IMG/VR virus record: IMGVR_UViG_3300015375_000848 | Strand: one strand, 5' to 3' | Length of the DNA stretch: 64,000 nt | DNA from: an uncultured virus (IMG/VR IMGVR_UViG_3300015375_000848) | Taxonomy: Duplodnaviria; Heunggongvirae; Uroviricota; Caudoviricetes | Shown: positions 17,871 to 42,329 of the stretch, one piece after another | How positions within the stretch are numbered: the stretch's first letter is position 1 | Layout: each line of letters opens with the position of its first letter | Made by a program: the position numbers and the translations under genes | Notes under the pieces: generated by a model | Seen by the model: the letters and a program-made list of their open reading frames with translations, nothing else | Told to the model about the DNA's origin: nothing | Databases searched by the model: none

Positions 17871-17872
17871 AA

Positions 17873-19333: not shown

Positions 19334-19335
19334 TA

Positions 19336-21526: not shown

Positions 21527-21527
21527 A

Positions 21528-23201
21528 ATGGCAACTGCATTAAAATTAAAAAGGGATATAAATAAGCTCAAAGCAGCTATAAGAAGCAAGGCTACCCCTC
21601 AAAGCTATGTCCCCAAGCTCAAGGCACAACTCCAAAAAGCTGAAGCTGATTATGAAAGCGTAAAAGCTGGTAAGAAGTCAGCTCCTAAAGCTAGCAAGCA
21701 AGTAAAATCTACACTGGATAAGCTCAAAGCGATTATCAAAAAGAAAAAGTATGGGGCTTATCGTGCTCAAGGTGTAGACCTTGAAAAAGATGCAGACAGA
21801 CCAGCATTAAGAAGCGGTAAAAGGACTTCAAAAAGTGGCAATACTTACTACGAATACCGTGCAAACCGTATTGACGTTAAGCAGCCTCCGAAGCGTTACC
21901 CTAAACTGGAAGACGGTGGAATGATGGCTGAAGGTGGAGAAATTCCAAAAAATATATTAGAAAATGCAAAAAAAACAGCATTAAGAGATGGATACGACCA
22001 ATACATAGTTTATGATGATAATGGTTTTGGTTTTGGAAGAAAGTATGAAGATTGGTCAGATATTAAAGGATTAGTTGCTAAAGTAACAACACACTATGTA
22101 AATGGTGTTAAAAATGTAAAAGTTGAAAAGATAAAATCAAAATATGCTGGCGGTGGTAGAGTTATGCCTTTTTTAAAATTTGAATATGCTACTGAAGCAA
22201 GAAAAAAATTAGATAAAGGTCAACTTCCCGTATTTGATGGTGGAGCAGGTTTTGATTATTTAGAAAAAGAAAAAAAGCTATATTATCTTCCTTCTGTAAC
22301 TGGGGATTGGCAAGAAGTAGGCGAATTTAAAAGCAAAAAAGAATCTATTGATTGGCTTTCAGACCAACTAAAAATGCAAAGTTTTGCTGAAGGTGGCACT
22401 ATTGACAACAGCGGTATGACCCCAGCAGACTTGCAAAAACAAATCTGGAATCTTACGGCTAGGATAGCCAAGCTAGGGGACATTGAATCACGGGCAGCTA
22501 GTGATGAAATTGAAATGCTGATGAAGCAAAGGAAAAAACTTCAGTCTATGGCACTTAATCACGGGGACGTGGTTATGGCTCAAGGCGGAGAATTACACCG
22601 TAGTCAAGAGGAAAAATTTAAGTATGGTGGCTATATGGCTGAAGGGGGTGTTATTGAGCTTAAAAGCGTAGGGACATATTTTAGACCCTCTGATTTAGCT
22701 ACTTCAACTGATGGCACATTTAGTGAAGACGATATGTTCTATTTAAGTGATATTGATAATTACGAATGGTGGCACGGGCTATCAAAAGAGGACAGAGCAA
22801 GGATTGAAGAGCATTTTGACGTTGACAAACATTTGATGGATAAATTTGAAACTACAGATTTAGACACCTATCATAAAGAGGCAAAGGAGTTTTGGGAAAA
22901 TAAAAAGGAAATGAAGGGTGGTGGTTATATGGCGGGGGGTGGAAAGTCAGACGAAGAAAACCCTTTTGTAAAGAGGTGGGAAAAATTTGCTCAAGATGTA
23001 TTACTTAATAAAAAAATAGTTAAGGTAAGATACTTAACAAATGAGGAGCAAAAAAATTTAGGCTGGTATAGAAAAGCAGTAGTTATTCAATTACAAGATG
23101 GCACACTGTTTTTCCCTTCAGCAGACGATGAGGGTAATGACGCTGGTGCTATATTTTTTCAATCAAAAGACTATCCAGAGGGCATATTGCCAGTTATCTA
23201 A
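21528..23201 (+). CDS. Modular GG-motif protein (basic N-terminus, GKRxSKSGxxYYEYRANR domain)
   Basis: Nine xxxGG motifs (LEDGG, MAEGG, YAGGG, FAEGG, MAQGG, FKYGG, MAEGG, MKGGG, MAGGG) separate short domains. Confidence 0.8.
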   Translation: MATALKLKRDINKLKAAIRSKATPQSYVPKLKAQLQKAEADYESVKAGKKSAPKASKQVKSTLDKLKAIIKKKKYGAYRAQGVDLEKDADRPALRSGKRTSKSGNTYYEYRANRIDVKQPPKRYPKLEDGGMMAEGGEIPKNILENAKKTALRDGYDQYIVYDDNGFGFGRKYEDWSDIKGLVAKVTTHYVNGVKNVKVEKIKSKYAGGGRVMPFLKFEYATEARKKLDKGQLPVFDGGAGFDYLEKEKKLYYLPSVTGDWQEVGEFKSKKESIDWLSDQLKMQSFAEGGTIDNSGMTPADLQKQIWNLTARIAKLGDIESRAASDEIEMLMKQRKKLQSMALNHGDVVMAQGGELHRSQEEKFKYGGYMAEGGVIELKSVGTYFRPSDLATSTDGTFSEDDMFYLSDIDNYEWWHGLSKEDRARIEEHFDVDKHLMDKFETTDLDTYHKEAKEFWENKKEMKGGGYMAGGGKSDEENPFVKRWEKFAQDVLLNKKIVKVRYLTNEEQKNLGWYRKAVVIQLQDGTLFFPSADDEGNDAGAIFFQSKDYPEGILPVI

Positions 23202-23217
23202 AATATAAAAAATTTAT

Positions 23218-29113: not shown

Positions 29114-29632
29114 ATGGCATACAAATTCAACATATCACAAGGGGAAGAAGTTCTCTTAAAAGTTGCAAGCATCGGAGCTGCAATTTTAGGTGTAGTGGCT
29201 GTCTATAGTTTTTATAAAAATAATATATGGCAGCCTAAAGTAGAAGTAGTAGATGTAGACTACGATAAAGGAGTTGCCAATTTAATTGTAAACGGTAAGC
29301 CTTTTACATTAAGAGGTGATTCTTCATATCTTATAGGATTTGACTGGGGTATTAAATTTGGTTATACCCCAAGAGGAACTGCTAGAAAAGCTGACCGAAT
29401 AGAGATTCTTAAGCGGGGAATGGTGCACAAAATCTTAAGAAAAGCTGACGAAAAGCACGAAGCTGGCTTTACTGGATTTGACGAAAGGACGTTTTGGAAC
29501 GATGCCTTTGAAGGCGGTAAAGGAGGCCTCACAGCAGTAGCTAGAAGCTTCACTGGAGATGAAAATGCTATTGTAAACGATGTCTGGGGTGTAAAATCTG
29601 GGGAAGGTTTTTCTTTATTCAAGGATAAATAA
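29114..29632 (+). CDS. N-anchored membrane protein with beta domain and FTG motifs
   Basis: TM near the N-terminus; GFTG and SFTG motifs. Confidence 0.7.
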   Translation: MAYKFNISQGEEVLLKVASIGAAILGVVAVYSFYKNNIWQPKVEVVDVDYDKGVANLIVNGKPFTLRGDSSYLIGFDWGIKFGYTPRGTARKADRIEILKRGMVHKILRKADEKHEAGFTGFDERTFWNDAFEGGKGGLTAVARSFTGDENAIVNDVWGVKSGEGFSLFKDK

Positions 29633-30018
29633 TGGTAAATACTATAAAAGATGCGGTTGTAAACAAAGGAGCTGGGGAAGCTGTCCTTTATGCTGGTCTT
29701 TTAGGTCTTCTTGTTTCCGATATAGTTCCTACTCCCGCAGATGCAGTTTATTTCCGCTTAATGGAAAAGAACAAGCAATTGCTAGAAAGCGGTAAAATAA
29801 CCCCTAGACAATACTGGACAAGGGATGCAGCTATGTATTATGGGTTAAACCCTTTATGGTGGCTACTAGTACTTGGAATCGTATTCAAAACCAAAGGGGG
29901 GTTAGATAATAAGATTAAATGGGGTATTGGAGTAGTAAGTGCTGGGGCTGTAATCGGTGTTATTTCAAAGAATATCAAAGAGGAAGAGAGGTTTTTGAAA
30001 GACAAAAAAAATTTTTGA
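29632..30018 (+). CDS. Multi-pass membrane protein
   Basis: Three hydrophobic segments; DIVPTPADA.YF motif. Confidence 0.7.
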   Translation: MVNTIKDAVVNKGAGEAVLYAGLLGLLVSDIVPTPADAVYFRLMEKNKQLLESGKITPRQYWTRDAAMYYGLNPLWWLLVLGIVFKTKGGLDNKIKWGIGVVSAGAVIGVISKNIKEEERFLKDKKNF

Positions 30019-30077
30019 ATACAAAAACGAATTCGTAATTTTATCTACGAAATCAACTTTAACTTAAAACTAAAAAA

Positions 30078-30191
30078 ATGGGAGATAAAAAAAATTTGGT
30101 ACCCGCTTTAGTAGGCTTCGCAGTAAGTCTTGTTGGTATCTACATTATTGTTCGTGTAGCTTCAGGCGCATGGGCAGCTGGTCAAAAATAA
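30078..30191 (+). CDS. 37-aa membrane microprotein (MGDKKNLVPALVGFAVSLVGIYIIVRVASGAWAAGQK)
   Basis: Manual translation; A-rich leader; paralogous to the next ORF. Confidence 0.8.
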   Translation: MGDKKNLVPALVGFAVSLVGIYIIVRVASGAWAAGQK

Positions 30192-30216
30192 TTTTTCAAT
30201 TTTAAAATTTAATACA

Positions 30217-30318
30217 ATGCAAAACGGTGGTAAACTTTTAGGATGGGCTTTAGGTCTTGCAGCTCTTGGTGTAACTGTATATGTTATCTCTAAGACTTGG
30301 AAAGCTGGTCAAAAGTAA
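30217..30318 (+). CDS. 33-aa membrane microprotein (MQNGGKLLGWALGLAALGVTVYVISKTWKAGQK)
   Basis: Manual translation; shares the W.AGQK end with 30078. Confidence 0.8.
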   Translation: MQNGGKLLGWALGLAALGVTVYVISKTWKAGQK

Positions 30319-30330
30319 AAATAAAAATTA

Positions 30331-30450
30331 ATGGCAAAAAGCACAAAGAAGGTGAGCGTTTCTGATATTGCAAAACTTGCAAAAAAAATCAGGAAGCCCA
30401 ATGAAAAGTGGACAGATGCAATTAAACGTGCAGCTGCTCAATTAAAATAA
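30331..30450 (+). CDS. 39-aa basic protein (AKKIRKPNEKWTDAIKRA), possible DNA-binding core protein
   Basis: Manual translation; Lys-rich helical hairpin. Confidence 0.65.
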   Translation: MAKSTKKVSVSDIAKLAKKIRKPNEKWTDAIKRAAAQLK

Positions 30451-30454
30451 GAGT

Positions 30455-31159
30455 ATGGCTAAAGAGAGTGTAATCGTCTTTGCGGGCGAAGATAAATTTA
30501 TTGCCAAAAAACAAAGAGAATTCAACAAATCAACTGGATTTTCTAATTTTGTTGGGGCAAATGGACAAGCTTCCGATACGCAAGAAATTACACCTAATCC
30601 TTTAACACCTCCTGATAAAGTTCCAATTCCAAACTATTCGGATGCTGACTTTTGCGAAAAAGCGCAACGATTTATTAGTACAAATGGAAATGGAACGGCA
30701 ACTCCAGACGAGGTTATGTCAGTGTACAATGCTTTTCAAGCAAACTGTCAAAGACCTACACCTGACGTACTGCCCTCTCTTTTGACCACAGATTGGGAAA
30801 GCCTTTCTTGTGATGATATTGCCTCAAAAGTTAAAGAGCTAGAAGACCTCCTAGTTACTTCAAGAATGCCCCAAGAAGAAAGGGTAAGATATGAAGCTGC
30901 AATTCAAAGGGGTCGAATGGTTCAAGCAGAGAAATGTGGTATCACTCCGCCAGTTTTACCTGATATTCCCCCTACTCCTACGCCAAATCCTCCTCAAACT
31001 GGGGTTGTTTTATCGGGTTTAGGGGTTCCACCAGTTAGAGGTGGGGGTGCTGGAGGTGGTGGAGAGAAAAAGCCAGAGCCCAAAAAAACAACTAATTGGC
31101 TGCTTTGGATTATTCTTGGAGGAACAGCCCTTTACTTATTAACCCGAAAAAGAAATTAA
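30455..31159 (+). CDS. C-terminally membrane-anchored virion protein
   Basis: Two Cys-paired helical units, Pro-rich linker, C-terminal TM followed by RKRN. Confidence 0.75.
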   Translation: MAKESVIVFAGEDKFIAKKQREFNKSTGFSNFVGANGQASDTQEITPNPLTPPDKVPIPNYSDADFCEKAQRFISTNGNGTATPDEVMSVYNAFQANCQRPTPDVLPSLLTTDWESLSCDDIASKVKELEDLLVTSRMPQEERVRYEAAIQRGRMVQAEKCGITPPVLPDIPPTPTPNPPQTGVVLSGLGVPPVRGGGAGGGGEKKPEPKKTTNWLLWIILGGTALYLLTRKRN

Positions 31160-31160
31160 A

Positions 31161-31601
31161 ATGGCAGCAGCAGCACAAGCTACGGCAGCAGTGCCAGAAG
31201 CAGCAGCAGCGGGAGCACAAGTAGCACCAGCAGCAGCTGCAGCACCAGCACCAGCAGCACCAAGCCCTCAATATACACCGCCACCTAGCACAATGCCTAG
31301 TATGGCTGAAGGAGGAGACGTTGGCGGAGCTGCACCTAGAAAAAACCCTTTCAAGGACTTTTTTTCTGATATCAACGTTGTTGACGTTGCTATTTCTGCA
31401 TTTATTGTTGGGGCAGTCATTTATTCTATTCAATATCATAAGTTTATGATAATGATGGAGAAAACTGGCTATGCTGATTTGTCTACCCGTATTAATAGAG
31501 TAGAAAACGATATTGCGGTAGCAAAAAGAAAAGCAGCAACTGAAGCAAACGCATCTGGGAACATGAGAATGCGAAGGAAGCGAGCTTTAGTTACGTTATA
31601 A
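31161..31601 (+). CDS. Ala/Pro-rich single-TM protein with MAEGG motif
   Basis: A/P-rich N-terminus, MAEGG, TM, coiled coil. Confidence 0.7.
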   Translation: MAAAAQATAAVPEAAAAGAQVAPAAAAAPAPAAPSPQYTPPPSTMPSMAEGGDVGGAAPRKNPFKDFFSDINVVDVAISAFIVGAVIYSIQYHKFMIMMEKTGYADLSTRINRVENDIAVAKRKAATEANASGNMRMRRKRALVTL

Positions 31602-31615
31602 AAAAACCATAAAAT

Positions 31616-32260
31616 ATGTTAGACACAATCACTTGGGGTAATCCAACCCAAAAGCATTTGCCGTTTTTAGAGCCAGACAAATCACCCTTAGAAAAATTAA
31701 TTCCGCAGCTAGTTAAGTTTACCTTCCCTAAAAATTCTTCTAAAGCATGTCGGGAAGAGCTAAATGAGCTTGTAGATTGCGTAGATGCTCTTAAGAAGGA
31801 TGAGCAAGCCTTAAAACGTTACATGGCTTATGATAGGAGTCTAACACAAGTGATGGCTCAAGTCATAATTGAACAGAATCTAGGGGATAAAGGGGCTGAA
31901 ATAGTTGATAAAATAATTGATGAAACGGTTCCTTTAATAATGAAGCTAAAATTTTACTTCCAAAGACCTAGACCATATCAAATGGCGGAGTATTATAAGC
32001 TTAAACTTTTCCCTTTTTATTCTAGGTCAGCAGCATCTCCCTCTTATCCATCTGGTCATGCTCTTCAAGCGAAAGTGATTTGCCACGTTTTAGGCAATCA
32101 TTTCCCCGACAGATTTGAATATTTTGAAAGTTTAGCCACTGATGTTCAGCATAGTAGAATATATCTAGGGGTGCATTATCCTTCAGATATTGACTATTCT
32201 CTTTTCGTTGCTGAAACAATAATCCGTGACAAGGAATTCAAGGCTAAATTCTCTTTATAG
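31616..32260 (+). CDS. PAP2/haloperoxidase-family phosphatase
   Basis: KxxxxRPRP, PSYPSGH, SRxxxGVHYPSD. Confidence 0.9.
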   Translation: MLDTITWGNPTQKHLPFLEPDKSPLEKLIPQLVKFTFPKNSSKACREELNELVDCVDALKKDEQALKRYMAYDRSLTQVMAQVIIEQNLGDKGAEIVDKIIDETVPLIMKLKFYFQRPRPYQMAEYYKLKLFPFYSRSAASPSYPSGHALQAKVICHVLGNHFPDRFEYFESLATDVQHSRIYLGVHYPSDIDYSLFVAETIIRDKEFKAKFSL

Positions 32261-32661
32261 TGCAGATTTTTTTAAGAAATGGCAAAGCCACTTGGAAACA
32301 AGATTGGGCTGAAATTGGCGGTAAGCGTAATTTTTACAGAAGCCGTTGGGAGTATAGGTATGCTTTATATCTTGAATTCATGAAAAAGTATGGTCATATT
32401 CAAGATTGGGAACATGAGCCCGTTACATTTTGGTTTGAAGGAATTAAACGGGGTACTAACAACTACAAGCCTGATTTTATGGTCACTTTCCCATCAAGTA
32501 AAATTGAGTTTTTTGAGGTTAAAGGGTATATGGATGCAAAAAGCAAGACTAAGATTAAACGTATGGCAAAGTATCATCCACAAATAGTTTTAAGAATTAT
32601 TGATAAAACATGGTTTAAGGATAACGCTGCAAAACTTAAAAAAATAATACCAAATTGGTGA
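32260..32661 (+). CDS. PD-(D/E)XK nuclease (DUF1064-like)
   Basis: RSRWE, YKPDF, EVKG. Confidence 0.85.
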   Translation: MQIFLRNGKATWKQDWAEIGGKRNFYRSRWEYRYALYLEFMKKYGHIQDWEHEPVTFWFEGIKRGTNNYKPDFMVTFPSSKIEFFEVKGYMDAKSKTKIKRMAKYHPQIVLRIIDKTWFKDNAAKLKKIIPNW

Positions 32662-32686
32662 ATTTCAACAGATTTCAATATATTTG
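32654..32686 (+). promoter_or_regulatory. Bacteroidota promoter ATTG-N21-TATATTTG
   Basis: Perfect TAnnTTTG at 32679-32686. Confidence 0.55.
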
Positions 32687-32705
32687 GTATGTTAAACTTT
32701 AGTAA

Positions 32706-33146
32706 ATGCAGAACGAATCTTCAGCAATTATTCAAATACTTGAAGACTTAAATAAAAGTATAGAAGTCAGAGGTTTGAAAGCTACCTCCATGTTATTAAG
32801 ATTATATGACCCTAAAGATTTAGATACTAGTTTGGGTGAATATGAAAAATTCGTGATTAGTGAAGTGGCAAAAGCTTTTAATGTCGAATTTGAAGATTTA
32901 TTTTTTGGTCGCTATAAAAGAGCTAGTTATAAATATGCAATAGGTTTATGTGTTTATTACTTATATAATGTTAGAACGCTCGGTGACATACAAAAAAAGA
33001 TTTTTAAATATAAAAACAAGTCGTTGTTAAGTAAATATAGAAGAGAAATCATGAATTTTACCCCTATAGACGAAGAGGACAAAAAATTTATGAAAATTAA
33101 AAAAGACTTAGATAAAAAGATTAAAACGTATAAAATTGAAATTTAA
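32706..33146 (+). CDS. Putative DNA-binding protein (DnaA C-terminal-like HTH)
   Basis: VA..FNV...DL...R......A.....YL.....L..I pattern; weak match. Confidence 0.45.
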   Translation: MQNESSAIIQILEDLNKSIEVRGLKATSMLLRLYDPKDLDTSLGEYEKFVISEVAKAFNVEFEDLFFGRYKRASYKYAIGLCVYYLYNVRTLGDIQKKIFKYKNKSLLSKYRREIMNFTPIDEEDKKFMKIKKDLDKKIKTYKIEI

Positions 33147-34282
33147 TGAGCACTCAAGAAAATAACCAACAAGAGCAGCAACAGCAATCGCCCGCTAATC
33201 AACAACGTACTTATAATCCGTTTATTGATGTAGTAAATGAAAAGCCGTATACAACTATGTCTGTATCGGCAAATGCTGCTCAAGTAGCTTCTCCAATTCC
33301 AGAACCGAGCTATCAGCCAAATGCAATTAGGGCAAATGAAAACCCTTATAGCATGTTAAACGAAGGCATGGGTGGTGGTATGGGAGCAAGTTCTTCGGGA
33401 GCACCCCCTCCACTAAATCCCGCTCTTAACAACGTGCCAGAATCAGAGCTTAAGATGGGTGCAGAAAATGTAGCTAAACTGTTAGTTGATGGCTATGAAC
33501 AGATGCACGTTTTTGGAAACAAATGGCTACAGATTTCTCAAAGAAAATTGAGAAAAATGGTTGCTGAAGGTGAAATAGACTTATCCGTTCAAATTCCATA
33601 TGATTACGGTAAAACTATTTCGGCTGGTGAATTTATTGAGGAATTCAATGAGCAAAATAAAGATACCTTAACAGTATCAAAAGAGTTTAAAAAAGAGGTT
33701 ACTCCAGTATTAACTAGAGTATTGCAGAAGCGAGGTGCTGCTATGACTGATGAGCAGTATTTAGGATTTTTGATTATTAAAGATGTAGGACTCAAAGCTA
33801 TCATTGTAACACAAGTAAAGAACTCTATGAATGAAATGCTTAATGTAATTAAAGATTACACCTTAGCATTGAGAGAAAGCGGAGCCTCCGCACCACCTAC
33901 ACCCCCAACATCAGCCCCTAAAGCTCCCAAGCCAACGATGCCTTCAGAACCAAAATTTACCGAACCTGACCATAGTTCAGAAAGGTTCAATTTTGAAGAT
34001 AATGAAGCAGTTATGGCTGCAACTGTTCAAGCACATAAAGTTCCAGATTCAGGAAGAGCTAAAGCAATAGCTGCCAGAAAAAAAGATGAGCAAATGAAAT
34101 CTGCTTTTGAAAAAACACAAGGTGGTAATTCATACGAGCAAGCCATGAAGAGTAAAAAGACGGGTAAGCGTGGAAGAAAGCCAAAAGATTACCTACAAAT
34201 GGATGAGGAGCAAATTGCAGAGGCAATAGTATTAAGAGAAACAAAAGAGGTTGATAAGGATAAAATTCAAGGACTAGATTAA
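33146..34282 (+). CDS. Hypothetical protein upstream of the packaging ATPase
   Basis: Long ORF; low-complexity ends and an AT-hook-like KRGRKPK. Confidence 0.75.
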   Translation: MSTQENNQQEQQQQSPANQQRTYNPFIDVVNEKPYTTMSVSANAAQVASPIPEPSYQPNAIRANENPYSMLNEGMGGGMGASSSGAPPPLNPALNNVPESELKMGAENVAKLLVDGYEQMHVFGNKWLQISQRKLRKMVAEGEIDLSVQIPYDYGKTISAGEFIEEFNEQNKDTLTVSKEFKKEVTPVLTRVLQKRGAAMTDEQYLGFLIIKDVGLKAIIVTQVKNSMNEMLNVIKDYTLALRESGASAPPTPPTSAPKAPKPTMPSEPKFTEPDHSSERFNFEDNEAVMAATVQAHKVPDSGRAKAIAARKKDEQMKSAFEKTQGGNSYEQAMKSKKTGKRGRKPKDYLQMDEEQIAEAIVLRETKEVDKDKIQGLD

Positions 34283-34291
34283 ATTTATTTT

Positions 34292-34702
34292 ATGTTAAAA
34301 CAATTAGAAGAAATACATGAGTATTTGAAGACTAATTACAGATTTGGTGATGAATTATGTGAAATTTCAGAGCCTAACGAGTGGGAAGACAAACCCTATG
34401 TAGCTTGCGATGAAAAAATAATTAATTACCAAGATGGATTTTATCATGTATCGGATTTGTATAACATCCATAAAACTCTTCGTTTTAAAACAAAAGAAGA
34501 AGTTTTGCAGTTTTTTGATGGGCATAGTGAAGGATATCAATTTTATTTTGATAATCCGCAAGATGCAGCTTTTGCAATTGGAAAGCTAACTACAATAATT
34601 GATTTAATGGCTCATAAAGAGACGCAAGACGCTTTTAATAATGCTATTTCTCCACTTCAGAAAACTTACAAGTTAAGTAATGCCCATGAAGATAAAGAAT
34701 AA
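34292..34702 (+). CDS. Hypothetical protein
   Basis: ORF track. Confidence 0.65.
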   Translation: MLKQLEEIHEYLKTNYRFGDELCEISEPNEWEDKPYVACDEKIINYQDGFYHVSDLYNIHKTLRFKTKEEVLQFFDGHSEGYQFYFDNPQDAAFAIGKLTTIIDLMAHKETQDAFNNAISPLQKTYKLSNAHEDKE

Positions 34703-35012
34703 GGAGTGGATTGCTTTTAAAGAGCAGTTCTTAAATATGCTTTCTGTTTTAGGAGACGAAACGGATAATTTTATGTTTCCTGAAGAACCTGAAAACTTTG
34801 AAATATTTGTACACGAATGTGAAGTGCATCCAACTTTCATGAAAAAACAAGATTCTTTTAAAGTTGATTACGATTTTACATTATGTGAAACAAAAATTAG
34901 AACTTTATCCTTTTCTATATTTCGTGACTCTGCAAGAATTGAAATGACTTTAAAAACTGGAGAATTAAAAATTGACGAAGGAAAAGTAACATGGCAAGAG
35001 AACCCTTATTGA
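34680..35012 (+). CDS. Hypothetical protein
   Basis: ORF track. Confidence 0.6.
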   Translation: MPMKIKNKEWIAFKEQFLNMLSVLGDETDNFMFPEEPENFEIFVHECEVHPTFMKKQDSFKVDYDFTLCETKIRTLSFSIFRDSARIEMTLKTGELKIDEGKVTWQENPY

Positions 35013-35809
35013 TGGCTGCCTGCGGTAAGAAAGGTGTAGGAAAAAGCTATCAACATATGATTTTAATGAATGGATACGTAATGGGTGACCCCTATAAAGG
35101 TGTGAAGGGTAGAAAGTCTCTTATCATGGATGTAAATGATGAGTATGGGGTATATGGAGTACCCGCTTTATCATTGAATGACGTTCCTCTTTACACTGTT
35201 CACCCCCAAGTAGAAATTAGAAGAATTAGACCTTTTCACCCCGATGGTAGAAGAATGACTCTTGATGAGTGGGCTAATGCTCTTTTTTACGTTCTAAATC
35301 GGTTCCAGAACGGTCTTTTGCTAATTGAGGATATAAATAAGTTTATTGGTGACCACTTGCCACATGATTTAGTTGGTGCGATTGCTACAAATCGTCATGC
35401 TGGCTTAGATATTGTCCTTTCCTATCAATCTTTAGGTAGGATTAACACTAAGATTTGGGGTAATATGAATCTTATGAGATTTCACAAGAACGTGGAAAGT
35501 GTTGAACGTCATAAAAATAAGTTTCCTGACAAATATGAGATGATGCGCATAGCAGAAATAATAGTTAACAATGAATATCACAAAGGAAATAATCGTTTCT
35601 TCTTATATGTAGATATGGACGAAGAGAAAATAAGAGGCGAAATAAACCAAGACCAAATATTATCTGGTATTGAACAATACGTCAATGAAAAACACAATGA
35701 ACTACTTAAATCATATCTAGTTCAGCGTGAGAATGGTAAAAAGAAGCATAACTCCGAAACTGCTAAAGCAGAGGTAATTAGCCGTTTACAAGTACAATAC
35801 TTCCAATAA
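34991..35809 (+). CDS. FtsK/HerA-superfamily genome packaging ATPase (A32/P9-like)
   Basis: N-terminal Walker A GKKGVGKS, Walker B LLLIED, RH-xxxx-hhhh-xQ (RHAGLDIVLSYQ); small standalone size; next to the candidate capsid gene. Confidence 0.8.
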   Translation: MAREPLLMAACGKKGVGKSYQHMILMNGYVMGDPYKGVKGRKSLIMDVNDEYGVYGVPALSLNDVPLYTVHPQVEIRRIRPFHPDGRRMTLDEWANALFYVLNRFQNGLLLIEDINKFIGDHLPHDLVGAIATNRHAGLDIVLSYQSLGRINTKIWGNMNLMRFHKNVESVERHKNKFPDKYEMMRIAEIIVNNEYHKGNNRFFLYVDMDEEKIRGEINQDQILSGIEQYVNEKHNELLKSYLVQRENGKKKHNSETAKAEVISRLQVQYFQ

Positions 35810-35830
35810 TTTTTCTGACCTATACCCTAA

Positions 35831-35865
35831 AACGCCCCTTTCATTCTTGTTAGGGGCTTTTTTAT
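35831..35865 (+). terminator. Rho-independent terminator
   Basis: GCCCCT...AGGGGC stem followed by TTTTTT. Confidence 0.7.
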
Positions 35866-36024
35866 TGAAAATTATACACAAATTCAACATATAAGTAGGT
35901 GTAGAACAAAGTCAAAAGATTTTCTTGAAAAAGTATGCATCGTATTGAAAACGAATACTAAATTTACAATGCCTTGATTCTGTAATCGGGCAAAACAAAA
36001 TTTTTAACTCAAAATTCGTTCAAA

Positions 36025-36132
36025 ATGAACTTTAAGAAAATTGTTGGAGATGTTTTAGTAGTTACTGCTGGAGTTGCTCTTTACATGTTGGCTGTAAAGC
36101 CTATGCTTGACAGAGCTAAAGTTGGTAGCTAA
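36025..36132 (+). CDS. 35-aa membrane microprotein co-transcribed with the candidate capsid gene (MNFKKIVGDVLVVTAGVALYMLAVKPMLDRAKVGS)
   Basis: Manual translation; single TM; lies inside the terminator-bounded unit. Confidence 0.75.
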   Translation: MNFKKIVGDVLVVTAGVALYMLAVKPMLDRAKVGS

Positions 36133-36192
36133 TTAGAAGACAATCGAATTGGTTTTGTAATCAAATTCAATTAAAATTAAAAATTCAGTAAA

Positions 36193-36897
36193 ATGAGTTC
36201 AATCCAACGCTATCTTCAAATGGCGAATCGTTCTGTGAACGAACAGTTTGTCGGTGTTGACGGCTTTATTGACGATGATATGTATTTTGCTGGTGATATG
36301 AATAACTGGTTTGCTGCTGAAGGCGAAGGTGCTGCTGCACCCGTTGCTGCTCCATCAGTTATGCGTTCACAGCCTTACATTATTACCGTTTCTAACGCTT
36401 CTAACGCTGCGGTTACTATTGATGTTTTCGGTGCTTACATTTATTTGAACAATGCTGGTTTCACAGCTGGTTCTTTGACTGTTAGTAACGTAACAATCAC
36501 TTCTAACCTCTCTAACGTTACCTATTACAATCTTTTGAACCAGTCAAGCATCAGCCCTTTCACAATCGGAAGCACGCTGATTAGCTCTGTAAATGGTACA
36601 ACAAGCCAAGTGCTTCAGCCAATTACATTGACTACTCAAGATGCAAACGGTAACCAAGCGGTTAAAATCTTAACACCAGTTGTTGACCCATATCAGAACC
36701 AGTCTGGTATCGTTGACCTGAAGCAACCATTCAGAATTGACGGCTTCACAAAGCTGACATTCTCTATTTTTGCTTCTACCAGCGTTCAGTTCCAGTTCTA
36801 TCCTTCTGATACAATCAACGTTGCTCGTGGATTGGGTGGTAACCCAGTTAGCAAGCAATATGGTAGTCCAAAGATTATCAGACCAGCTGCACGCTAA
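36193..36897 (+). CDS. Candidate major capsid protein (jelly-roll, beta-rich) with acidic N-terminal leader
   Basis: About 175-aa alternating beta-strand domain, Cys-free; GCT/TCT/AAC-rich codons suggest high expression; flanked by terminators; adjacent to the A32-like ATPase. The fold is inferred. Confidence 0.6.
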   Translation: MSSIQRYLQMANRSVNEQFVGVDGFIDDDMYFAGDMNNWFAAEGEGAAAPVAAPSVMRSQPYIITVSNASNAAVTIDVFGAYIYLNNAGFTAGSLTVSNVTITSNLSNVTYYNLLNQSSISPFTIGSTLISSVNGTTSQVLQPITLTTQDANGNQAVKILTPVVDPYQNQSGIVDLKQPFRIDGFTKLTFSIFASTSVQFQFYPSDTINVARGLGGNPVSKQYGSPKIIRPAAR

Positions 36898-36915
36898 TAT
36901 CAGCGGTAAAATAAT

Positions 36916-36958
36916 AAAAGGGGCTGAAGCGGGAATTTCTCTTGCTTCGCCCTTTTTT
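36916..36958 (+). terminator. Strong Rho-independent terminator
   Basis: AAAAGGGGC-T-GAAGCGGGA / TCTTGCTTC-GCCCTTTT stem followed by a T tract. Confidence 0.8.
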
Positions 36959-36983
36959 ACATTGAAATAGTTAAATTTGTTGT

Positions 36984-37391
36984 ATGTCAAATTCAAGAGT
37001 AAACTTATATAGCTATACAGCAGCTTCAAACCCTTACTTTGTCAAGTCTCTAGCACATAAATATGGCTACGAGTATGATAAAGAACAAAGTTTGGCTTCT
37101 GTGTTACAACAACTAGTAAGCTATGAAGGTGAGCCCGTTTTGATGGAAATTATTGAGAATAATCCTGATAAAGACCTTTTCATGGAATACTATGATAAAA
37201 AGTATGCCAAAAAAGAGGAAGAGAAAAAATCAACACAGCCTAGTGAGATTGCTTCTTATATGAACTTTACTGGTCAGCTTGCTGCTGTTCAGCAACTTCA
37301 GGAAAATAAAAAAATTACTACAGAAACTAGCTTAATGGTTTTAGCTGGTGCTGTTTTGATTGCGTTTGCAATCGTAACTACTAAAAAGTAA
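36984..37391 (+). CDS. C-terminally anchored virion membrane protein
   Basis: C-terminal TM followed by KK; MNFTG motif. Confidence 0.75.
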   Translation: MSNSRVNLYSYTAASNPYFVKSLAHKYGYEYDKEQSLASVLQQLVSYEGEPVLMEIIENNPDKDLFMEYYDKKYAKKEEEKKSTQPSEIASYMNFTGQLAAVQQLQENKKITTETSLMVLAGAVLIAFAIVTTKK

Positions 37392-37394
37392 ATT

Positions 37395-38084
37395 ATGGCT
37401 TTAGATGCTTTACAAGTAACAAGAAGCTTACTTGCATATCAAGTGGTAAACGACAGAGGGTCACTTGAAAGATTATTGAAAAGAAACGGTGTTTCAGTAC
37501 CAGAAAACGCAAGTGATGCTGAAGTCATTTCTGCTTCGCTTTTCACGGCTGGTAAAAGTGCTAATTTCAAAAAAGAGCTAGCCTCTCTTCTATCGGGTAA
37601 GGCAAAAACAGCTGGAGAGAAATTTTCTTCTTTTGTAGGTCAAGAAATGGGTTTTACTGGTCTTGACGATTTTTCCTTTACTGGTATGGAAGGTTTTGAA
37701 AGTTGGAACGGTGGAACACAACAGTTAAGTCTTGCCGTAAAACAAGGAATTGATAGTGGTAAAATAAAAACGAAGAAAGATAAGACTGGTGCTGGTAAAG
37801 CATTATCCTCAATCGGTACTTTTTTCAAGGAGAATGTTCTTACAAGAGAAAATATTGATACAGCTGTAAATATTGGTCTGACAAAGATTAACACGCAGAC
37901 TCAAAATAAAGCTAATAAAATAGCTCAAGAGGGTCTTGTAATACAGCAATATCAAGATGATATCAGAAACCAGCAAGCTTCAAAAGCCAAAGGTGGTTTA
38001 AGCACTGGCGCATGGGTAGCTATCGGTTTAGGGGTGGCTGCTATCGTTGGAATTGGAATATATCTTTCAACCAGAAAAAAATAA
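37395..38084 (+). CDS. C-terminally anchored virion membrane protein
   Basis: C-terminal TM followed by RKK; three F[VT]G motifs. Confidence 0.75.
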   Translation: MALDALQVTRSLLAYQVVNDRGSLERLLKRNGVSVPENASDAEVISASLFTAGKSANFKKELASLLSGKAKTAGEKFSSFVGQEMGFTGLDDFSFTGMEGFESWNGGTQQLSLAVKQGIDSGKIKTKKDKTGAGKALSSIGTFFKENVLTRENIDTAVNIGLTKINTQTQNKANKIAQEGLVIQQYQDDIRNQQASKAKGGLSTGAWVAIGLGVAAIVGIGIYLSTRKK

Positions 38085-38087
38085 AAG

Positions 38088-38549
38088 ATGAAAACAAGAG
38101 ATATTGTAATACTTGCTGTAATCGGTTTAGCTGCTTATTATCTTTTAATGGGTAAGAAAAAACCCTTAAAAAAAGAGGATATGCCAGCTGGTAAGGGCGG
38201 GTCTGCTACTCCCGTTTTCAAGGGTAATGGTGCCCCACAACCGCAACCTAGACCAACTGCAACTGTAGTTACTGTTGACGATTTGAGCAAAAAGGTAAAG
38301 CCAATGTTGGTGCAGACAGATTATGTAATGCCTGATATTGAGAAGCCAGCACTTAAGCAGCCAATAGAAGTGCCAGCACTAAATTTAATTCCGAATGTTT
38401 ATGATAGGGGTGTAAATCAACCTCTACCTAATAAAGATGCTTACTATGCAAGCTTTGCTGGTCAGTGTAGCGAAGACATACAGACCGCATGTGCATGTGC
38501 TAGCTCTAAAAAAGAAAAATTTAATATAGATATTCCAAAATTACCATAA
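38088..38549 (+). CDS. N-anchored Pro-rich membrane protein
   Basis: N-terminal TM followed by KKK; SFAG motif. Confidence 0.7.
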   Translation: MKTRDIVILAVIGLAAYYLLMGKKKPLKKEDMPAGKGGSATPVFKGNGAPQPQPRPTATVVTVDDLSKKVKPMLVQTDYVMPDIEKPALKQPIEVPALNLIPNVYDRGVNQPLPNKDAYYASFAGQCSEDIQTACACASSKKEKFNIDIPKLP

Positions 38550-38776
38550 TGGCAGAGGCTAAAGAAATACTAGATAAGCTCAAAAATTTAAAGTCAACTT
38601 CTACTTCAATGGATATGAAAAGAAGAAAAGGGCTAATAAACGGGGGGTTAATTGGTATGGCTGGCGGTGTGCTTATTGGGCTTACCAGAAATTACAATTT
38701 GATTTCTTCCGCAATTGTTGGAGCTTTGATAGGGGGTCTTGTAACATCTGTAATTCTTCCTAAATCTGATGACTAA
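38549..38776 (+). CDS. Glycine-zipper two-TM protein
   Basis: GxxxG-rich hydrophobic hairpin. Confidence 0.7.
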   Translation: MAEAKEILDKLKNLKSTSTSMDMKRRKGLINGGLIGMAGGVLIGLTRNYNLISSAIVGALIGGLVTSVILPKSDD

Positions 38777-39204
38777 TGGCAAAAAATGTTACTAAAATAG
38801 TTGCTGGGGCACTTGCAGTTGTAGGTGCATATTTTATTTTTAAATATTTTCAAAAACCAAAGTCAACACAGCCCGTTCAAGGTGAGCCAGACGTTATTGC
38901 GCCTCCATCATCAAAACCAGATAGTGGATATCCTCTGAAAAGAGGAAGCACTGGAAGGTTAGTATCATCTGTTCAGCAGTGGGTTTTAAAAATTGACCCT
39001 ACTCTGTTACCAAAGTATGGTGCAGATGGGAAATTTGGAGCAGAAACGGAGACGGCATTGCAAAACCTTATTGGTAAGAAAACTATTGATTCTAATTCCG
39101 ATATAGATAAACTTATTTTAAAATATAATCAGAAAAAATTTCCTTTGGTGGCTACACCAAAAGGGGGTACTTCACCAGTTTATAAACCATTTGGAACATT
39201 CTAA
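38776..39204 (+). CDS. N-anchored protein with peptidoglycan-binding domain (PG_binding_1)
   Basis: LKRGSTG..V..VQ....ADGKFG.ETE.AL. Confidence 0.8.
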   Translation: MAKNVTKIVAGALAVVGAYFIFKYFQKPKSTQPVQGEPDVIAPPSSKPDSGYPLKRGSTGRLVSSVQQWVLKIDPTLLPKYGADGKFGAETETALQNLIGKKTIDSNSDIDKLILKYNQKKFPLVATPKGGTSPVYKPFGTF

Positions 39205-39222
39205 ACAAAAAAAAACCATAAA

Positions 39223-39513
39223 ATGGAAAACACGGTTAAAGACAAAGATTTAACTGCCAATCAATTGTATAAAATTTATAGAGATGAAGGAGGTACATTA
39301 AAGTTTTCAGACTGGCTTACAAGGGAAAAAACAAAAGGAATTTTTCCATTGAATGGCGATTTGAATACTGGAGTACAAGAAACTCTAAAAAAAGTAAAAG
39401 AAGAAGAAATGAAAAAAACTTATTTAGGATTCCCCGTTTCCACTTTGCTTATTGCGGGTGGTGTAATTATATTAGCTGTAGTAGCAGCAAAAATGTTAAA
39501 AAAGAAAAACTGA
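39223..39513 (+). CDS. C-terminally anchored membrane protein
   Basis: C-terminal TM followed by KKKN. Confidence 0.7.
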   Translation: MENTVKDKDLTANQLYKIYRDEGGTLKFSDWLTREKTKGIFPLNGDLNTGVQETLKKVKEEEMKKTYLGFPVSTLLIAGGVIILAVVAAKMLKKKN

Positions 39514-39518
39514 TTATT

Positions 39519-39803
39519 ATGAAATATGGTCAATTTTTTGTAGGTCTTTTGGTTGGGGCAGTGGCTATGCATGTTTTGCATAAAATGGGATATATGTCAA
39601 ATAATCCTAAAAATGCACCTGACGTTGTAAAAGATGTAAACCAAGAAGAACTAACTAATTATTCAGACCCACTGCGTAAAAAGTATGATATAGTTTTAAA
39701 GCCTAATAAATACTCTAAAAAGGTAGTTGAAAAGGCCAAAGACCTTACTCGTGGTAGGTACGAAGTTGACTTAAATAAAGTAAAACAGCCAGTATCACTA
39801 TAG
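39519..39803 (+). CDS. N-anchored membrane protein
   Basis: N-terminal TM. Confidence 0.65.
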   Translation: MKYGQFFVGLLVGAVAMHVLHKMGYMSNNPKNAPDVVKDVNQEELTNYSDPLRKKYDIVLKPNKYSKKVVEKAKDLTRGRYEVDLNKVKQPVSL

Positions 39804-39835
39804 TTTGATTATTAAAGGAAAAGTATCATTTTACT

Positions 39836-40633
39836 ATGACCTATACACTTTGGACAAGATATGAGCCTATAATGATTAAGCTTGTGTTACAGACTACATC
39901 CCCTCAAGATATAGTCTTGAAAGTGTATGACCCAAATCAAGCTAATACTTTTTTCACTAATAGAGAGAAGAGCGTAAACGGAGTTGAAGAGCTTTTTGTA
40001 AGGATGCCTTTATCGCCAAGCGTTGTAAAGCTTGAGGTGTACAATAAAAAAACGGGTAATGTACCCAAAGGTCAAGACCCCTCTTTTTCAGTTTTGGCAA
40101 TTAAAAAAGAAGACCTTGATATAACTCTGCCCAAAACCAAAATGGACACTTTTGCTGTTCGTAATTTTGTTGCGTTTGCTCAAAAGTTTTCATACAATGC
40201 TGGGTGGTTGTCTGCTCCTAAAGATTATTTAAGTTCGGTGGGAGCTTTTAAAATTGAATACTTGCCTTTCATCATTAATTCAAAAGGCGAGAAAATGTCT
40301 ACGCCAGCAAGAATTAGTACAAAAAACGGTAGGATTCAAGTTTCACAGCAAGCTTTTCGTGAATATACTATACCTATGCGTATGGCTATTTTGCTTCATG
40401 AATTCAGCCATTTTTATTTGAATTCTGACATATCCGATGAAACGGAAGCTGATTTAAACGGATTGACAATTTACTTAGGATTGGGGTATCCTATAAGAGA
40501 AGCTTATCAAGCTTTTACCAGCACTTTTGTTGGGCATCCAACAGACCAAAACAAACAGCGTTACGATATTATTGATAAATTTATAAGAGATTATATTCAA
40601 GAATATAAACTGAAAGATGTTTATGCTAAATAA
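39836..40633 (+). CDS. Zincin (HExxH) metalloprotease
   Basis: TPARI..I.V....F......R.AILLHEFSH...E.EAD; N-terminal beta domain. Confidence 0.85.
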   Translation: MTYTLWTRYEPIMIKLVLQTTSPQDIVLKVYDPNQANTFFTNREKSVNGVEELFVRMPLSPSVVKLEVYNKKTGNVPKGQDPSFSVLAIKKEDLDITLPKTKMDTFAVRNFVAFAQKFSYNAGWLSAPKDYLSSVGAFKIEYLPFIINSKGEKMSTPARISTKNGRIQVSQQAFREYTIPMRMAILLHEFSHFYLNSDISDETEADLNGLTIYLGLGYPIREAYQAFTSTFVGHPTDQNKQRYDIIDKFIRDYIQEYKLKDVYAK

Positions 40634-40639
40634 TTAAAA

Positions 40640-41194
40640 ATGGCACAGAAATACAGCTTTTATAGAGATTTACCGTCATGGGCAAAAGGCGTTTTTGTTA
40701 TTGGAGTAGGTGTAGTTGGATATATTATCCTTAATAAAGTATATAAAGGGATTAAAGGTGCAGCAGATAAGAGTAAAGAAAGTAAAACCACTAAAGATAT
40801 TCAGCAAGAGCTAAAAGATTTACAAAATCAAGGAGTTAGAAAAAGTTTTGCAGATTCTCAATACAAGGCTTGGGCAGACATAATTCAGCAACAATTTGAC
40901 GGCTGCGACTCAAAACAGAATGTCTTTGATATGAGTGACCCCCTTTTAGGATGGGCTGGGTCGTTTAGCGGTAGTGGGAAGCTAGTTGCTGGAATATTTA
41001 ATCAGTTAAAAAATAATACTGATTTTGCTGCTTTAGTAGCTGCTTACGGAGTCCGCACTTATGACCAGTGTGGTTTATGGACTGGAGATGTAACTGGAAA
41101 TATTTACAAAGCCATAGCTGATGAGTTAGACGAGGGAGAGAGAAGAGAATTGAACAAAAAATTAGCAACAAAAGGAATAACATACAAAGTTTAA
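40640..41194 (+). CDS. N-anchored virion membrane protein
   Basis: TM near the N-terminus plus a helical domain. Confidence 0.7.
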   Translation: MAQKYSFYRDLPSWAKGVFVIGVGVVGYIILNKVYKGIKGAADKSKESKTTKDIQQELKDLQNQGVRKSFADSQYKAWADIIQQQFDGCDSKQNVFDMSDPLLGWAGSFSGSGKLVAGIFNQLKNNTDFAALVAAYGVRTYDQCGLWTGDVTGNIYKAIADELDEGERRELNKKLATKGITYKV

Positions 41195-41204
41195 AATAAA
41201 AATT

Positions 41205-41741
41205 ATGCCAGCACCAGTAGCAGTATTTTTAGCACCAACAGCGGGGGGTATAGCTCTAATAAGTAAACGAAAACAAGCAAGAAGAGCTCAAGCAGCCTCT
41301 AATAAATGGTCTACACAATTTCCTTTAGTAGATGACTTCGCCTCCCAGCAAGCTATGATTAATCAAGCTCAATTGCAACTGAAAACTCTTCAGGCTCAAG
41401 GGGGAAAGTCCAAGCAAGTAAAAGCTGAAATAGCCCAATTATCTAAGTGGATTGGTGTCATGAAAGCTCAACTTAAGGATTTGAAAACGGGCTTAGATAT
41501 GGCAAGTACCAATATTCAAAAAGCTCCTTCTCCTAAAGCAATTTCAGAATCATCTCTTCCCGTTGCTCAAATAACTACTGGAACAGACAATATTCCTACT
41601 GGAGTATCTTCAACTGACGTAGCGCAAAATGTAGCAAATGGCGGTAATTTAGCTACAGCAACAAAAAAGCCTACAAACTGGCTTTTGATTGGTGGAGTGG
41701 TAGTAGGTGTTGTTCTTTTATTTAGAATGTTTAAAAAGTAA
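41205..41741 (+). CDS. C-terminally anchored coiled-coil protein
   Basis: TNWLL + TM + KK end, similar to 30455. Confidence 0.7.
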   Translation: MPAPVAVFLAPTAGGIALISKRKQARRAQAASNKWSTQFPLVDDFASQQAMINQAQLQLKTLQAQGGKSKQVKAEIAQLSKWIGVMKAQLKDLKTGLDMASTNIQKAPSPKAISESSLPVAQITTGTDNIPTGVSSTDVAQNVANGGNLATATKKPTNWLLIGGVVVGVVLLFRMFKK

Positions 41742-41744
41742 TTT

Positions 41745-42329
41745 ATGGCAATAGATATGATTGAAAATAATGAGCTTGGTGCTTTAGCCCCAAGTCGTTT
41801 AGGTTTAAGAGAATTCGCTGATGATAAATGGGCGTATAAAAACTATACGGGGGGGGACGATTTTTTCAATCTTTTGGGAAGCCGTAAGAAGAAAATGGAA
41901 AAATATAGCAGTTGGGCTAGGACAAAGTTTGAAAATCTATCTACCGATTGTGATAAAATTCAAGGTAGTATTGAAATCATCAATAATGAGATTCAGCTTC
42001 TTTTGAAGCAAAAGCAAACTTTAAACATAAAAACTCAACTCAAAGAAACAAATCAAATTCTGGCTGATTTCAAGAGAACGCAAATTGAGCAAGATTGTGA
42101 GAGAATTCTAACTCAAGCAAAATCTGAAAAAGAAAGAGAACAAACACTTGCTACCCTTACACAGCTAAGTGATGTTTCAGTTGGAAAAGCGCAACAAGAA
42201 TTAGCTGGTTTACAAGCTGGTCTTTCTCCACAAGAGGCTGCCTCTCAAGCTAACATGAAAAAGTATTTATTATATGGTGGTATAGGTTTGGGTGCTATAC
42301 TTTTAATTGCCCTAATTACAAAAAAATGA
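41745..42329 (+). CDS. C-terminally anchored coiled-coil protein
   Basis: Cys-paired helical hairpin like 30455; C-terminal TM followed by KK. Confidence 0.7.
   Translation: MAIDMIENNELGALAPSRLGLREFADDKWAYKNYTGGDDFFNLLGSRKKKMEKYSSWARTKFENLSTDCDKIQGSIEIINNEIQLLLKQKQTLNIKTQLKETNQILADFKRTQIEQDCERILTQAKSEKEREQTLATLTQLSDVSVGKAQQELAGLQAGLSPQEAASQANMKKYLLYGGIGLGAILLIALITKK

Follow-up and report, generated by a model that had tools for sequence, protein, structure and literature searches.

The disordered leader of the probable major capsid protein and the membrane proteins encoded around it share a motif, acidic-x-[FYW]-x-[NGS]-[A/F]-[DSTN]-G (core [FYW]-x-[NGS]-[A/F]-[DSTN]-G), in an uncultured virus of which 64,000 nucleotides (the window) were analysed, and in its relatives. 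We observed the motif, its distribution, its conservation and intact catalytic residues in the predicted zinc protease 39836; that the copies are recognition and maturation sites of this enzyme is, judged from the sequences, an evenly balanced proposition. Genes and motif copies given with window coordinates lie on the plus strand.

The sequence-only reading had proposed a motif x-F-[T/V/A]-G, shared by the capsid leader and neighbouring membrane proteins, and all 12 copies that it listed were found at the genes named. A shared short motif does exist, but x-F-[TVA]-G fails as its definition, being enriched in this clade only: F[TVA]G occurs 28 times vs 5.8 expected in close relatives and 22 times vs 19 expected, i.e., without enrichment, in distant ones. 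By raw count, the region stands out: the 23 proteins encoded at 29114-42329 contain 13 matches where 2.29 are expected, and the remaining 73 of the genome contain 7 where 11.4 are expected. Since the pattern had been picked after seeing the sequence, every pattern of the type a-[3 residues]-c (456,000 in total) was scored, with 200 shuffles for comparison; F[ATV]G ranked first, and an equally strong best pattern arose in 12 of the shuffles (6%), so the enrichment in the window on its own is borderline after this look-elsewhere correction. On comparison with relatives, F-[TVA]-G is merely the local dialect of the longer, older motif. Unseeded EM on the leaders converged on acidic composition, so the motif definitions come from relaxing patterns and from a matrix that was seeded.

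The membrane proteins of distant relatives (321 after dereplication, loci L020-L056) contain the long motif 54 times against 5.1 expected, in 22 families, which bears out the proposal of one motif common to the capsid leader and the membrane proteins of the structural module; in 220 soluble proteins, it was found 9 times against 4.4. A matrix trained on capsid leaders only gave, at 10 bits, 51 matches vs 4.6 expected in the held-out membrane proteins and 8 vs 2.6 in the soluble ones. Capsid leaders (5,815 residues) contain 82 strict copies, and capsid cores (19,111 residues) contain 12. The predicted FtsK/HerA-type packaging ATPase (34991..35809; Walker A in the sequence; weak PHROG match, E 0.0008), whose gene keeps a fixed position upstream of the capsid gene, was used as a control and lacks the motif in all 56 family members. 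The residue before Gly is mostly D, S, T or N, Pro is nearly absent at positions -5 to -1, and the acidic residues downstream of a copy are often the beginning of the next tandem copy.

The probable major capsid protein is encoded by 36193 (36193..36897), with a terminator-like hairpin downstream (36925-36949). It comprises an N-terminal helix (residues 3-16), a disordered acidic leader (17-45) and a single jelly-roll core (~54-217). In the AlphaFold2 model (112 sequences), pLDDT is below 50 over residues 17-45; structure comparison returned jelly-roll matches, the best of them weak (Z 5.9) and none at family level. A leaderless capsid paralog is located at 72936-73451 of G000 and is also present in most relatives. 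The leaders are disordered and vary in length from 40 to 89 aa, and [AF]-x-G occurs at least once in 93 and at least twice in 73 of 104 leaders. Three copies are present in the leader of 36193. The first, F-V-G-V-D-G (36247..36264), aligns with F/Y-x-N-A-D-G, NADG being present in 27 of 36 distant homologs; the QFVG listed at residue 19 is its front half, out of register. The second, the F-type D-M-Y-F-A-G (36277..36294, residue 32), is kept as [AF]-x-G in 10/10 close and 19/36 distant homologs. The third, W-F-A-A-E-G (36307..36324), was absent from the earlier list; its alanine, A42, is conserved in 90% or more of the 112 capsid sequences, and the copy is found in 22 of the 36 distant homologs.

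Counted over unique homologs, most of the listed copies are kept as [AF]-x-G, while two are weakly kept and two were read out of register. The C-terminal tail of 29114 (29459..29557) carries two F-type copies, at residue 119 (kept in 5/5 homologs) and residue 146 (0/5 at that column, hence weak); two homologs (L008, L011) do have a second copy, with two motif-led blocks in swapped order. At the N-terminus of 30455 (30470..30565), the F-A-G at residue 9 is kept in all five homologs as F-D/E-G, and the NFVG at residue 32 is the front half, out of register, of F-V-G-A-N-G, to which the leader-trained matrix assigns 11.5 bits. The copy Y-M-N-F-T-G of 36984 (37257..37274, residue 95), directly ahead of a C-terminal membrane anchor, is kept as [AF]-x-G in 10/10 close and 28/32 distant homologs, mostly as N-A-S/T-G or G-A-D-G. 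Three tandem copies are found in 37395 (37623..37685): residue 80 is weakly kept (3/10 close homologs), residue 87 is kept in 10/10 close and 5/24 distant homologs, and residue 95 in 5/10 and 8/24. In the N-anchored 38088, Y-A-S-F-A-G (38445..38462, residue 123) is kept in 8/10 homologs, every time as N-A-x-G. The N-terminal leader of 41745 (41835..41879) contains N-Y-T-G at residue 34, kept in 11/11 close and 1/2 distant homologs, followed by a probable second copy, F-F-N-L-L-G, read off the homolog alignment.

About 28 membrane proteins are predicted, which suggests an internal virion membrane. In all 47 single-pass proteins assessed, the motif falls within the longer of the two soluble parts, and the sequences viewed showed no evident signal peptide; the sites therefore probably face the same side of the membrane as the capsid and the protease. 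The distance from motif to anchor spans 12 to 257 residues (20-fold), some copies are situated only 6-10 residues from a terminus, and copies have been gained and lost within families, with the motif present in some members only of the 39223 family.

The predicted gluzincin protease 39836 (39836..40633) has a beta-rich N-terminal part, H-E-F-S-H at 40397-40411 and E-T-E-A-D at 40439-40453. Residues H188, E189, H192, E202, A205 and D206 are invariant in 48/48 sequences, and HExxH with a downstream Glu, the third zinc ligand that marks a gluzincin, was found in all 57 sequences (duplicates included), in 54 by regular expression and in three by reading. The match to Pfam M48 is below the cut-off (E 0.18, 12.1 bits against 20.3), and 6 of 48 members match at E up to 1. 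A single-sequence model (pLDDT 43.5) was too poor for use and gave no fold match, an HMM search of PDB sequences gave no match, and the ESM Atlas returned unnamed clusters, among which a DUF4344 metallopeptidase (0.87) offers a lead. The gene lies among these structural genes in 52 of 57 loci; of the five others, four end ~2 kb or less from the capsid gene and the fifth is in a record having the gene. It is present in 14 of 15 whole records, the remaining one being a 20-kb fragment, and among the loci reached, which exclude clade A5 and metagenome contigs, no relative was found that retains only the motif or only the protease.

Under the maturation reading, the capsid precursor and the membrane proteins would come together at the cytoplasmic side of the membrane; 39836 would then cut the 45-residue capsid leader at two or three sites and free leaders or ectodomains from the membrane proteins, so that the shell and the membrane would be held together less tightly. 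Docking through the tag may precede its cleavage, as in vaccinia A17. The scissile bond could be [NGS]-[A/F], with a small P1, a hydrophobic P1' and Gly at P3', exposing A-D-G, F-T-G or V-D-G as new N-termini; we slightly favour it over a cut after Gly, because about a fifth of the leader copies have no Gly (34 vs 17 by chance). A small P1 with Leu/Ile at P1' is described for zincins such as MMPs (PMC3985423). Consistent with a hydrophobic P1', the A/F position accepts V, M, I and L (16 vs 1.1 expected) much more readily than it does polar residues (13 vs 5.3). The avoidance of Pro after Gly was also considered as a mark of cutting there and is uninformative, G-P being rare everywhere (1/233 vs 21/3,851).

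Several further observations argue for maturation: one motif spans unrelated families, also under the leader-trained matrix; a disordered, length-variable leader holds several copies; the protease gene sits among the genes concerned; a Pfam scan of 79 window proteins revealed no other trans-acting protease; the sites are likely on the capsid and protease side of the membrane; the anchor distance varies; and copies come and go within families. Other observations point the opposite way. N-A-D-G is a classic turn-forming sequence and would thus suit recognition in a turn conformation, whereas proteases require an extended strand; the likeness of the leader to 41745 and 37395 runs over ~15 residues, more than one active site would read; and [AF]-x-G is missing from 11 of the 104 leaders, with only degenerate copies in L135 despite a retained protease. 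In addition, zincins have been proposed to process polyvalent proteins (PMC5512222), so the protease could instead serve the cargo proteins.

The strongest alternative, which we rate as possible and somewhat less probable than maturation, is an uncut docking tag. It would sit, probably as a turn, in a pocket of a scaffold protein or of the capsid protein's inner face. The leader would use the tag between subunits, the membrane proteins would mimic the leader and so tie the shell to the membrane, and the zincin would act elsewhere, for example on the GG motif of the cargo. Aromatic and A/F anchors with acidic flanks, the longer leader mimicry in 41745 and 37395, the copies close to a terminus and the near absence of Pro upstream all suit docking. 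So does the rarer upstream aromatic residue where Phe stands two before Gly (11/39 vs 47/71, p=0.00015), as if one pocket could be filled from either position. However, the leader is undocked in the 36193 monomer model, in which binding between subunits would be invisible; the 20-fold spread of anchor distances and the partial occurrence in the 39223 family fit docking poorly; and an invariant protease amid membrane-protein genes would be left needing another substrate.

A further question is whether the structural motif and the GG motif of the cargo module are one code. The cargo module (13616..25221) encodes large soluble proteins with [YFM]-A-[KDN]-G-G-x-hydrophobic; 13616 (with ART-PolyVal and DUF5661 domains), 21528 and 23218 carry 6, 8 and 5 GG copies and no structural motif. 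A single reader of an A-[DN]-G core would account for the Ala two before Gly in both (73% of cargo and 76-85% of strict structural copies), often with Asp or Asn between, and for Y-A-D/N-G in some leaders (14 vs 2.0 expected). We consider it improbable, since the classes segregate by protein type (2 strict structural copies vs 263 GG copies in 38,807 cargo residues) and differ in residue preferences: a second Gly directly follows in 179 of 184 cargo [FYM]-A-[DEKN]-G copies vs 11-15% of structural ones, Lys/Arg directly precedes Gly in 46% vs 0-2%, and a hydrophobic residue at +3 is seen in 84% of cargo copies, with no preference in structural ones. These figures agree with the earlier proposal of two separate codes. 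Each of the 15 genomes counted contains both motifs as well as the protease, so co-occurrence cannot distinguish the substrates. The single-pass protein 31161 (31161..31601; homolog alignment) carries the cargo-type M-A-E-G-G-D-V (31302-31322) ahead of its helix; the N-A-S-G that follows the helix (31542-31559) is confined to this clade.

The least probable explanation, that the copies are a by-product of acidic, Gly-rich linkers (composition or turns) or relics of copied leader fragments with no reader, fits the borderline enrichment in the window and the chance-level F[TVA]G in distant relatives but is largely refuted by the excess of the long motif in membrane proteins, by the matches of the leader-trained matrix there and by the leaders (76 copies vs 1.9 in composition-preserving shuffles). 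Also against it are positions kept while the letters alternate between F-T-G and A-D-G, and codons that are not alike among copies, which are therefore not a plain DNA repeat.

The comparison with poxvirus AG-X made in the sequence-only reading proved a poor fit. I7 and adenain are cysteine proteases that need Ala-Gly or Gly-Gly before the cut; here, the candidate enzyme is a gluzincin, Ala stands two before Gly with D/S/T/N mostly between, and Gly may be missing. The likeness to vaccinia I7 lies in one short motif across several virion precursors (A17, A10, A3, L4), one of them a membrane protein that has its N-terminus cleaved after this has bound the jelly-roll scaffold (PMC4213562). Polintons, virophages and adenoviruses have in common a module in which a jelly-roll capsid is combined with an FtsK-type ATPase and a protease, there adenain-type and Ulp1-like, and the protease is regarded as a key gain of polintoviruses over tectiviruses (PMC4405056). 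The present system differs from these in its inferred bacterial host, single jelly roll, gluzincin and motif of six to eight residues with optional Gly. No Ulp1-like cysteine protease was matched by Pfam among the 79 window proteins, a set that leaves out ORFs beyond 62465 and 43819 and a scan that remote homologs can escape.

Prohead protease codes, such as that of T4 gp21, belong to HK97-fold tailed phages and to another protease class, and their substrates are not mainly single-pass membrane proteins. SPN3US gp245 (A-X-E) resembles our case in its N-terminal propeptides on capsid and internal proteins, with several cleavage sites within propeptides (PMC10052503). Neither Pfam (79 proteins) nor PHROGs (15 proteins) revealed an HK97 capsid, portal or terminase; the capsid candidate is a jelly roll, and the virus appears tailless. 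It resembles Helvetiavirae/Sphaerolipoviridae, PRD1, PM2 and Jorvik in having a probable single jelly-roll capsid-type protein beside a predicted FtsK/HerA ATPase and many small predicted membrane proteins, and differs from internal-membrane phages in its genome of at least 74 kb. Helvetiavirae have two single jelly-roll MCPs (PMC8328091), and here there is the leaderless paralog. No mention of a maturation protease was found for the internal-membrane groups and Jorvik in the accessible text of PMC5894146 and PMC10589892. The zincin MPTase found in polyvalent proteins by Iyer et al. (2017; PMC5512222) likewise has HExxH plus Glu and is proposed to process multidomain proteins packaged by phages, to which 13616 is similar in its ART-PolyVal domain; that MPTase is a domain of a polyvalent protein, whereas 39836 stands alone among structural genes, and the accessible text gives no cleavage motif for it. 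A search of 50,697 phage records for isolated relatives gave nothing for the capsid protein or the ATPase and two weak, unrelated matches for the protease.

Nothing on this virus family or motif was found in the literature outside subscription papers and supplements, and the accessible text of PMC4158269, PMC11161782 and PMC4777984 held nothing to the point. Proteolytic maturation in jelly-roll/FtsK-ATPase viruses is framed as a gain of eukaryotic lineages (PMC4405056), and in the accessible literature it is so far tied to eukaryotic hosts only. We tentatively propose, as something short of an even chance, a large, tailless, membrane-containing bacterial lineage with its own zinc-protease maturation, convergent with adenain/I7, and with two peptide codes per particle: a tag that directs cutting in membrane proteins and the capsid leader, and a GG address borne by the large cargo proteins that are ejected and also displayed by the conserved 31161, possibly across the membrane. 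If true, an unrelated protease class in a bacterial lineage would be a clear case of convergence, and the motif would define a new protease specificity; if the tag is uncut, it would still be a general code linking capsid to membrane. The motif also serves to flag virion proteins in a family that Pfam and PHROGs leave almost entirely unannotated, and it can be tested directly with a pair of small soluble proteins, without culturing the virus.

Two other motif classes, Ca-binding DxDxDG and the O-glycosylation motif of Bacteroidota, were considered and do not match the consensus. Finally, three unlisted matches in the region (two of the 13 F[TVA]G matches and one further [FY][TVA]G match) look incidental: those in 39519 and 29632 fall in hydrophobic stretches, and that in 39836 lies in the folded protease.

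All twelve copies of x-F-[TVA]-G that the sequence-only reading had listed in the capsid leader and neighbouring membrane proteins are present at the genes indicated. In the 23 proteins of the 29-42 kb region, F[TVA]G occurs 13 times vs. 2.29 expected, and elsewhere in the genome 7 times vs. 11.4 expected. To correct for a pattern picked after looking, 456,000 patterns were compared with shuffles; F[TVA]G ranked first, but 6% of 200 shuffles equaled that level, so the window enrichment taken alone is suggestive and not decisive.

In homolog alignments the sites are kept while the letters change: N-F-T-G of gene 36984 is N-F-S-G, N-A-S-G, N-A-T-G or G-A-D-G in relatives, and S-F-A-G of 38088 is N-A-T-G; 37395/80 and 29114/146 are weakly conserved. 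A-D-G is the top tripeptide (75 vs. 6.2) in the leaders, i.e., the disordered N-terminal parts, of 104 distant capsid proteins 27-51% identical to that of the window (36193). The proteins of relatives' loci L020-L056 were dereplicated at 60% (561 of 1,156 proteins), excluding capsid proteins and those of at least 400 residues. Their membrane proteins show no excess of exact F[TVA]G (22 vs. 19.0), the form originally proposed being enriched only in the window's clade; [FYLMW]-x-[NSG]-[AF]-[DNSTEAV]-G, composed after viewing leaders and close relatives, occurs 54 times vs. 5.1 (49 of 321 proteins, 22 families), and its excess among soluble proteins is weak (9 vs. 4.4). For a cleaner test, leader sites were the sole training set of a matrix, which was compared with shuffles at a threshold of 10 bits and gave 51 sites vs. 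4.6 in membrane proteins and 8 vs. 2.6 in 208 soluble proteins, counts that are not independent events, as the viruses are kin, although the protein families are mutually unrelated. F-type and A-type copies number 22 vs. 9 in the window's clade and 28 vs. 54 in distant viruses (p=0.0006). Judged by sequence comparison, F-T-G is a dialect of a wider structural motif, [FYW]-x-[NGS]-[A/F]-[DSTN]-G. Among the most distant genomes, the motif is kept in G012, where most of the membrane proteins encoded from the capsid gene to the protease gene carry strict copies, and is degenerate in L135, a 61-kb contig in a Saprospiraceae bin whose capsid leader (L135:4758-5540) is made of near-perfect D-M-S-Y-F-D repeats, most without Gly. 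Between 29114-29632 and its relative L008:135-731, two C-terminal F-T-G-led blocks are swapped in order.

The register of two copies was corrected: QFVG of 36193 and NFVG of 30455 are each the leading half of a complete copy whose register lies three residues further on, and a third leader copy in 36193, W-F-A-A-E-G, was absent from the earlier list. Leaders are 40-89 residues long; [AF]-x-G occurs at least once in 93 of the 104 and at least twice in 73, often spaced by 6-10 residues, and the last copy lies a median of 11 residues ahead of the capsid core. Motif information spans from ~7 residues before Gly through Gly, beyond which nothing is conserved in membrane proteins. The A/F position also accepts V, M, I and L. 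Roughly one-fifth of genuine copies in leaders have no Gly; counts against chance are 76 vs. 1.9 for Gly-containing copies and 34 vs. 17 for those lacking it. Single-pass proteins with a 10-bit site number 47 (36 C-anchored, 11 N-anchored), and every one has it in the longer of its soluble parts; in the C-anchored group, the distance to the helix ranges from 12 to 257 residues. The motif is missing from the ATPase family (0 of 56), as well as from several further soluble core families.

The large soluble cargo proteins carry a different motif, [YFM]-A-[KDN]-G-G-x-[IVLTM], in 263 copies (33 proteins, 11 genomes), vs. two structural-type copies in their 38,807 residues, which bears out the proposed separation of the two. 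A-x-G is common to both; the residues before Ala, before Gly, after Gly and at +3 differ, Lys/Arg preceding Gly in 46% of cargo copies vs. 0-2% of structural ones. The two motifs most likely have separate readers. Gene 31161 (window:31161-31601) encodes a conserved single-pass membrane protein in which, in most homologs shown, one GG copy ends a Pro/Ala-rich N-terminal linker. Basic residues follow its membrane helix; by the positive-inside rule for membrane-protein topology, the GG copy may therefore face away from the capsid. This protein is a candidate membrane anchor for cargo proteins.

The parent record has 73,942 bases, and the window covers its first 64 kb. The probable major capsid protein 36193 (234 residues) follows 34991, a predicted packaging ATPase. 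Its AlphaFold2 model (112 sequences) comprises an N-terminal helix, disordered residues 17-45 (pLDDT under 50) and a beta-sandwich resembling viral jelly rolls at fold level only (best Foldseek E 8.6e-4, best Z 5.9). A conserved D-A-N-G hairpin in the folded core (residues 150-153; window 36193-36897) is like the motif core, and may be either a chance turn sequence or what the motif mimics. The virus also encodes ~28 small predicted membrane proteins and the HExxH protein 39836, a predicted zinc protease; among the 79 window proteins, Pfam found neither tailed-phage head genes nor another trans-acting protease. The capsid protein and ATPase matched no isolated phages, and a literature search, with subscription papers and supplements outside its reach, found no published description of the virus family or motif. 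A Shine-Dalgarno-like word precedes 3 of 91 genes, and an A-rich stretch lies at -13 to -10, features associated with Bacteroidota; three of six protease matches in the genome collection lie in Bacteroidota bins and three in bins of other phyla. From these patterns we infer a Bacteroidota host. Beyond the window, a leaderless capsid paralog without the motif (G000:C1:72936-73451) is found, as also in G001, G003, G005 and G010-G014; an N-anchored membrane protein (G000:C1:72554-72934) has S-F-S-G-D-E-D, probably a further motif copy in a second small virion-gene cluster. In G011 and G012, larger proteins with weak capsid similarity adjoin the protease gene.

Residues H188, E189, H192, E202, A205 and D206 of 39836 are unchanged in 48 of 48 close sequences. 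HExxH plus Glu, the gluzincin pattern according to PMC3985423, is present in all 57 family members examined; the family match is weak (M48, E 0.18), and a single-sequence model (pLDDT 43.5) matched no known fold. Of 57 loci, 52 carry the gene, and so do 14 of the 15 whole records; truncation of sequences explains the absences. Both motifs accompany the protease in 15 of 15 genomes counted, so co-occurrence cannot identify which one it reads. G012:C1:74645-75190 (L113) is a second copy of the protease C-terminal part, without HExxH.

The structural motif may be either cut or bound. We favor maturation cleavage, giving it an even chance. The motif consists of a small residue, then a near-obligate hydrophobic one, with Gly two further on; a cut between the first two would place Gly at P3', where zincins also have a preference. 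The small-hydrophobic bond would match the zincin P1 and P1' preferences (PMC3985423) better than a cut after Gly, and is the favored scissile bond. Cleavage is also suggested by the repeated copies within the disordered leader, which are like the propeptides of SPN3US, known to be cut several times (PMC10052503), and by vaccinia A17, a precedent in which a membrane protein first holds the jelly-roll scaffold and is then cut by I7 (PMC4213562). A serious rival, which we consider possible but less probable, is an uncut docking tag; the turn-like motif sequence and the long leader mimicry in 41745 and 37395 count for it, as does the proposal that zincins process polyvalent cargo instead (PMC5512222). 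The original interpretation, maturation cleavage or capsid binding, is partly supported, as a shared maturation or docking code, of a kind already known, in a virus group for which no cultured member was found. The new elements are the test on held-out proteins that makes F-T-G a dialect, the corrected registers, a numerical distinction between the structural motif and the GG code, and a predicted scissile bond for the cleavage reading.

Elsewhere in the window, four long Gly/Ser/Thr repeat proteins (window:43819-57482) have Pfam matches to collagen-like repeats alone. Three of them end in a common C-terminal domain, presumably reminiscent of self-cleaving fibre chaperones. Beside the AAA ATPase 17873, the gene at 19327-20631, with a DUF7192 match, probably starts with a codon other than ATG, since its 434-codon open frame has no ATG before 20158.
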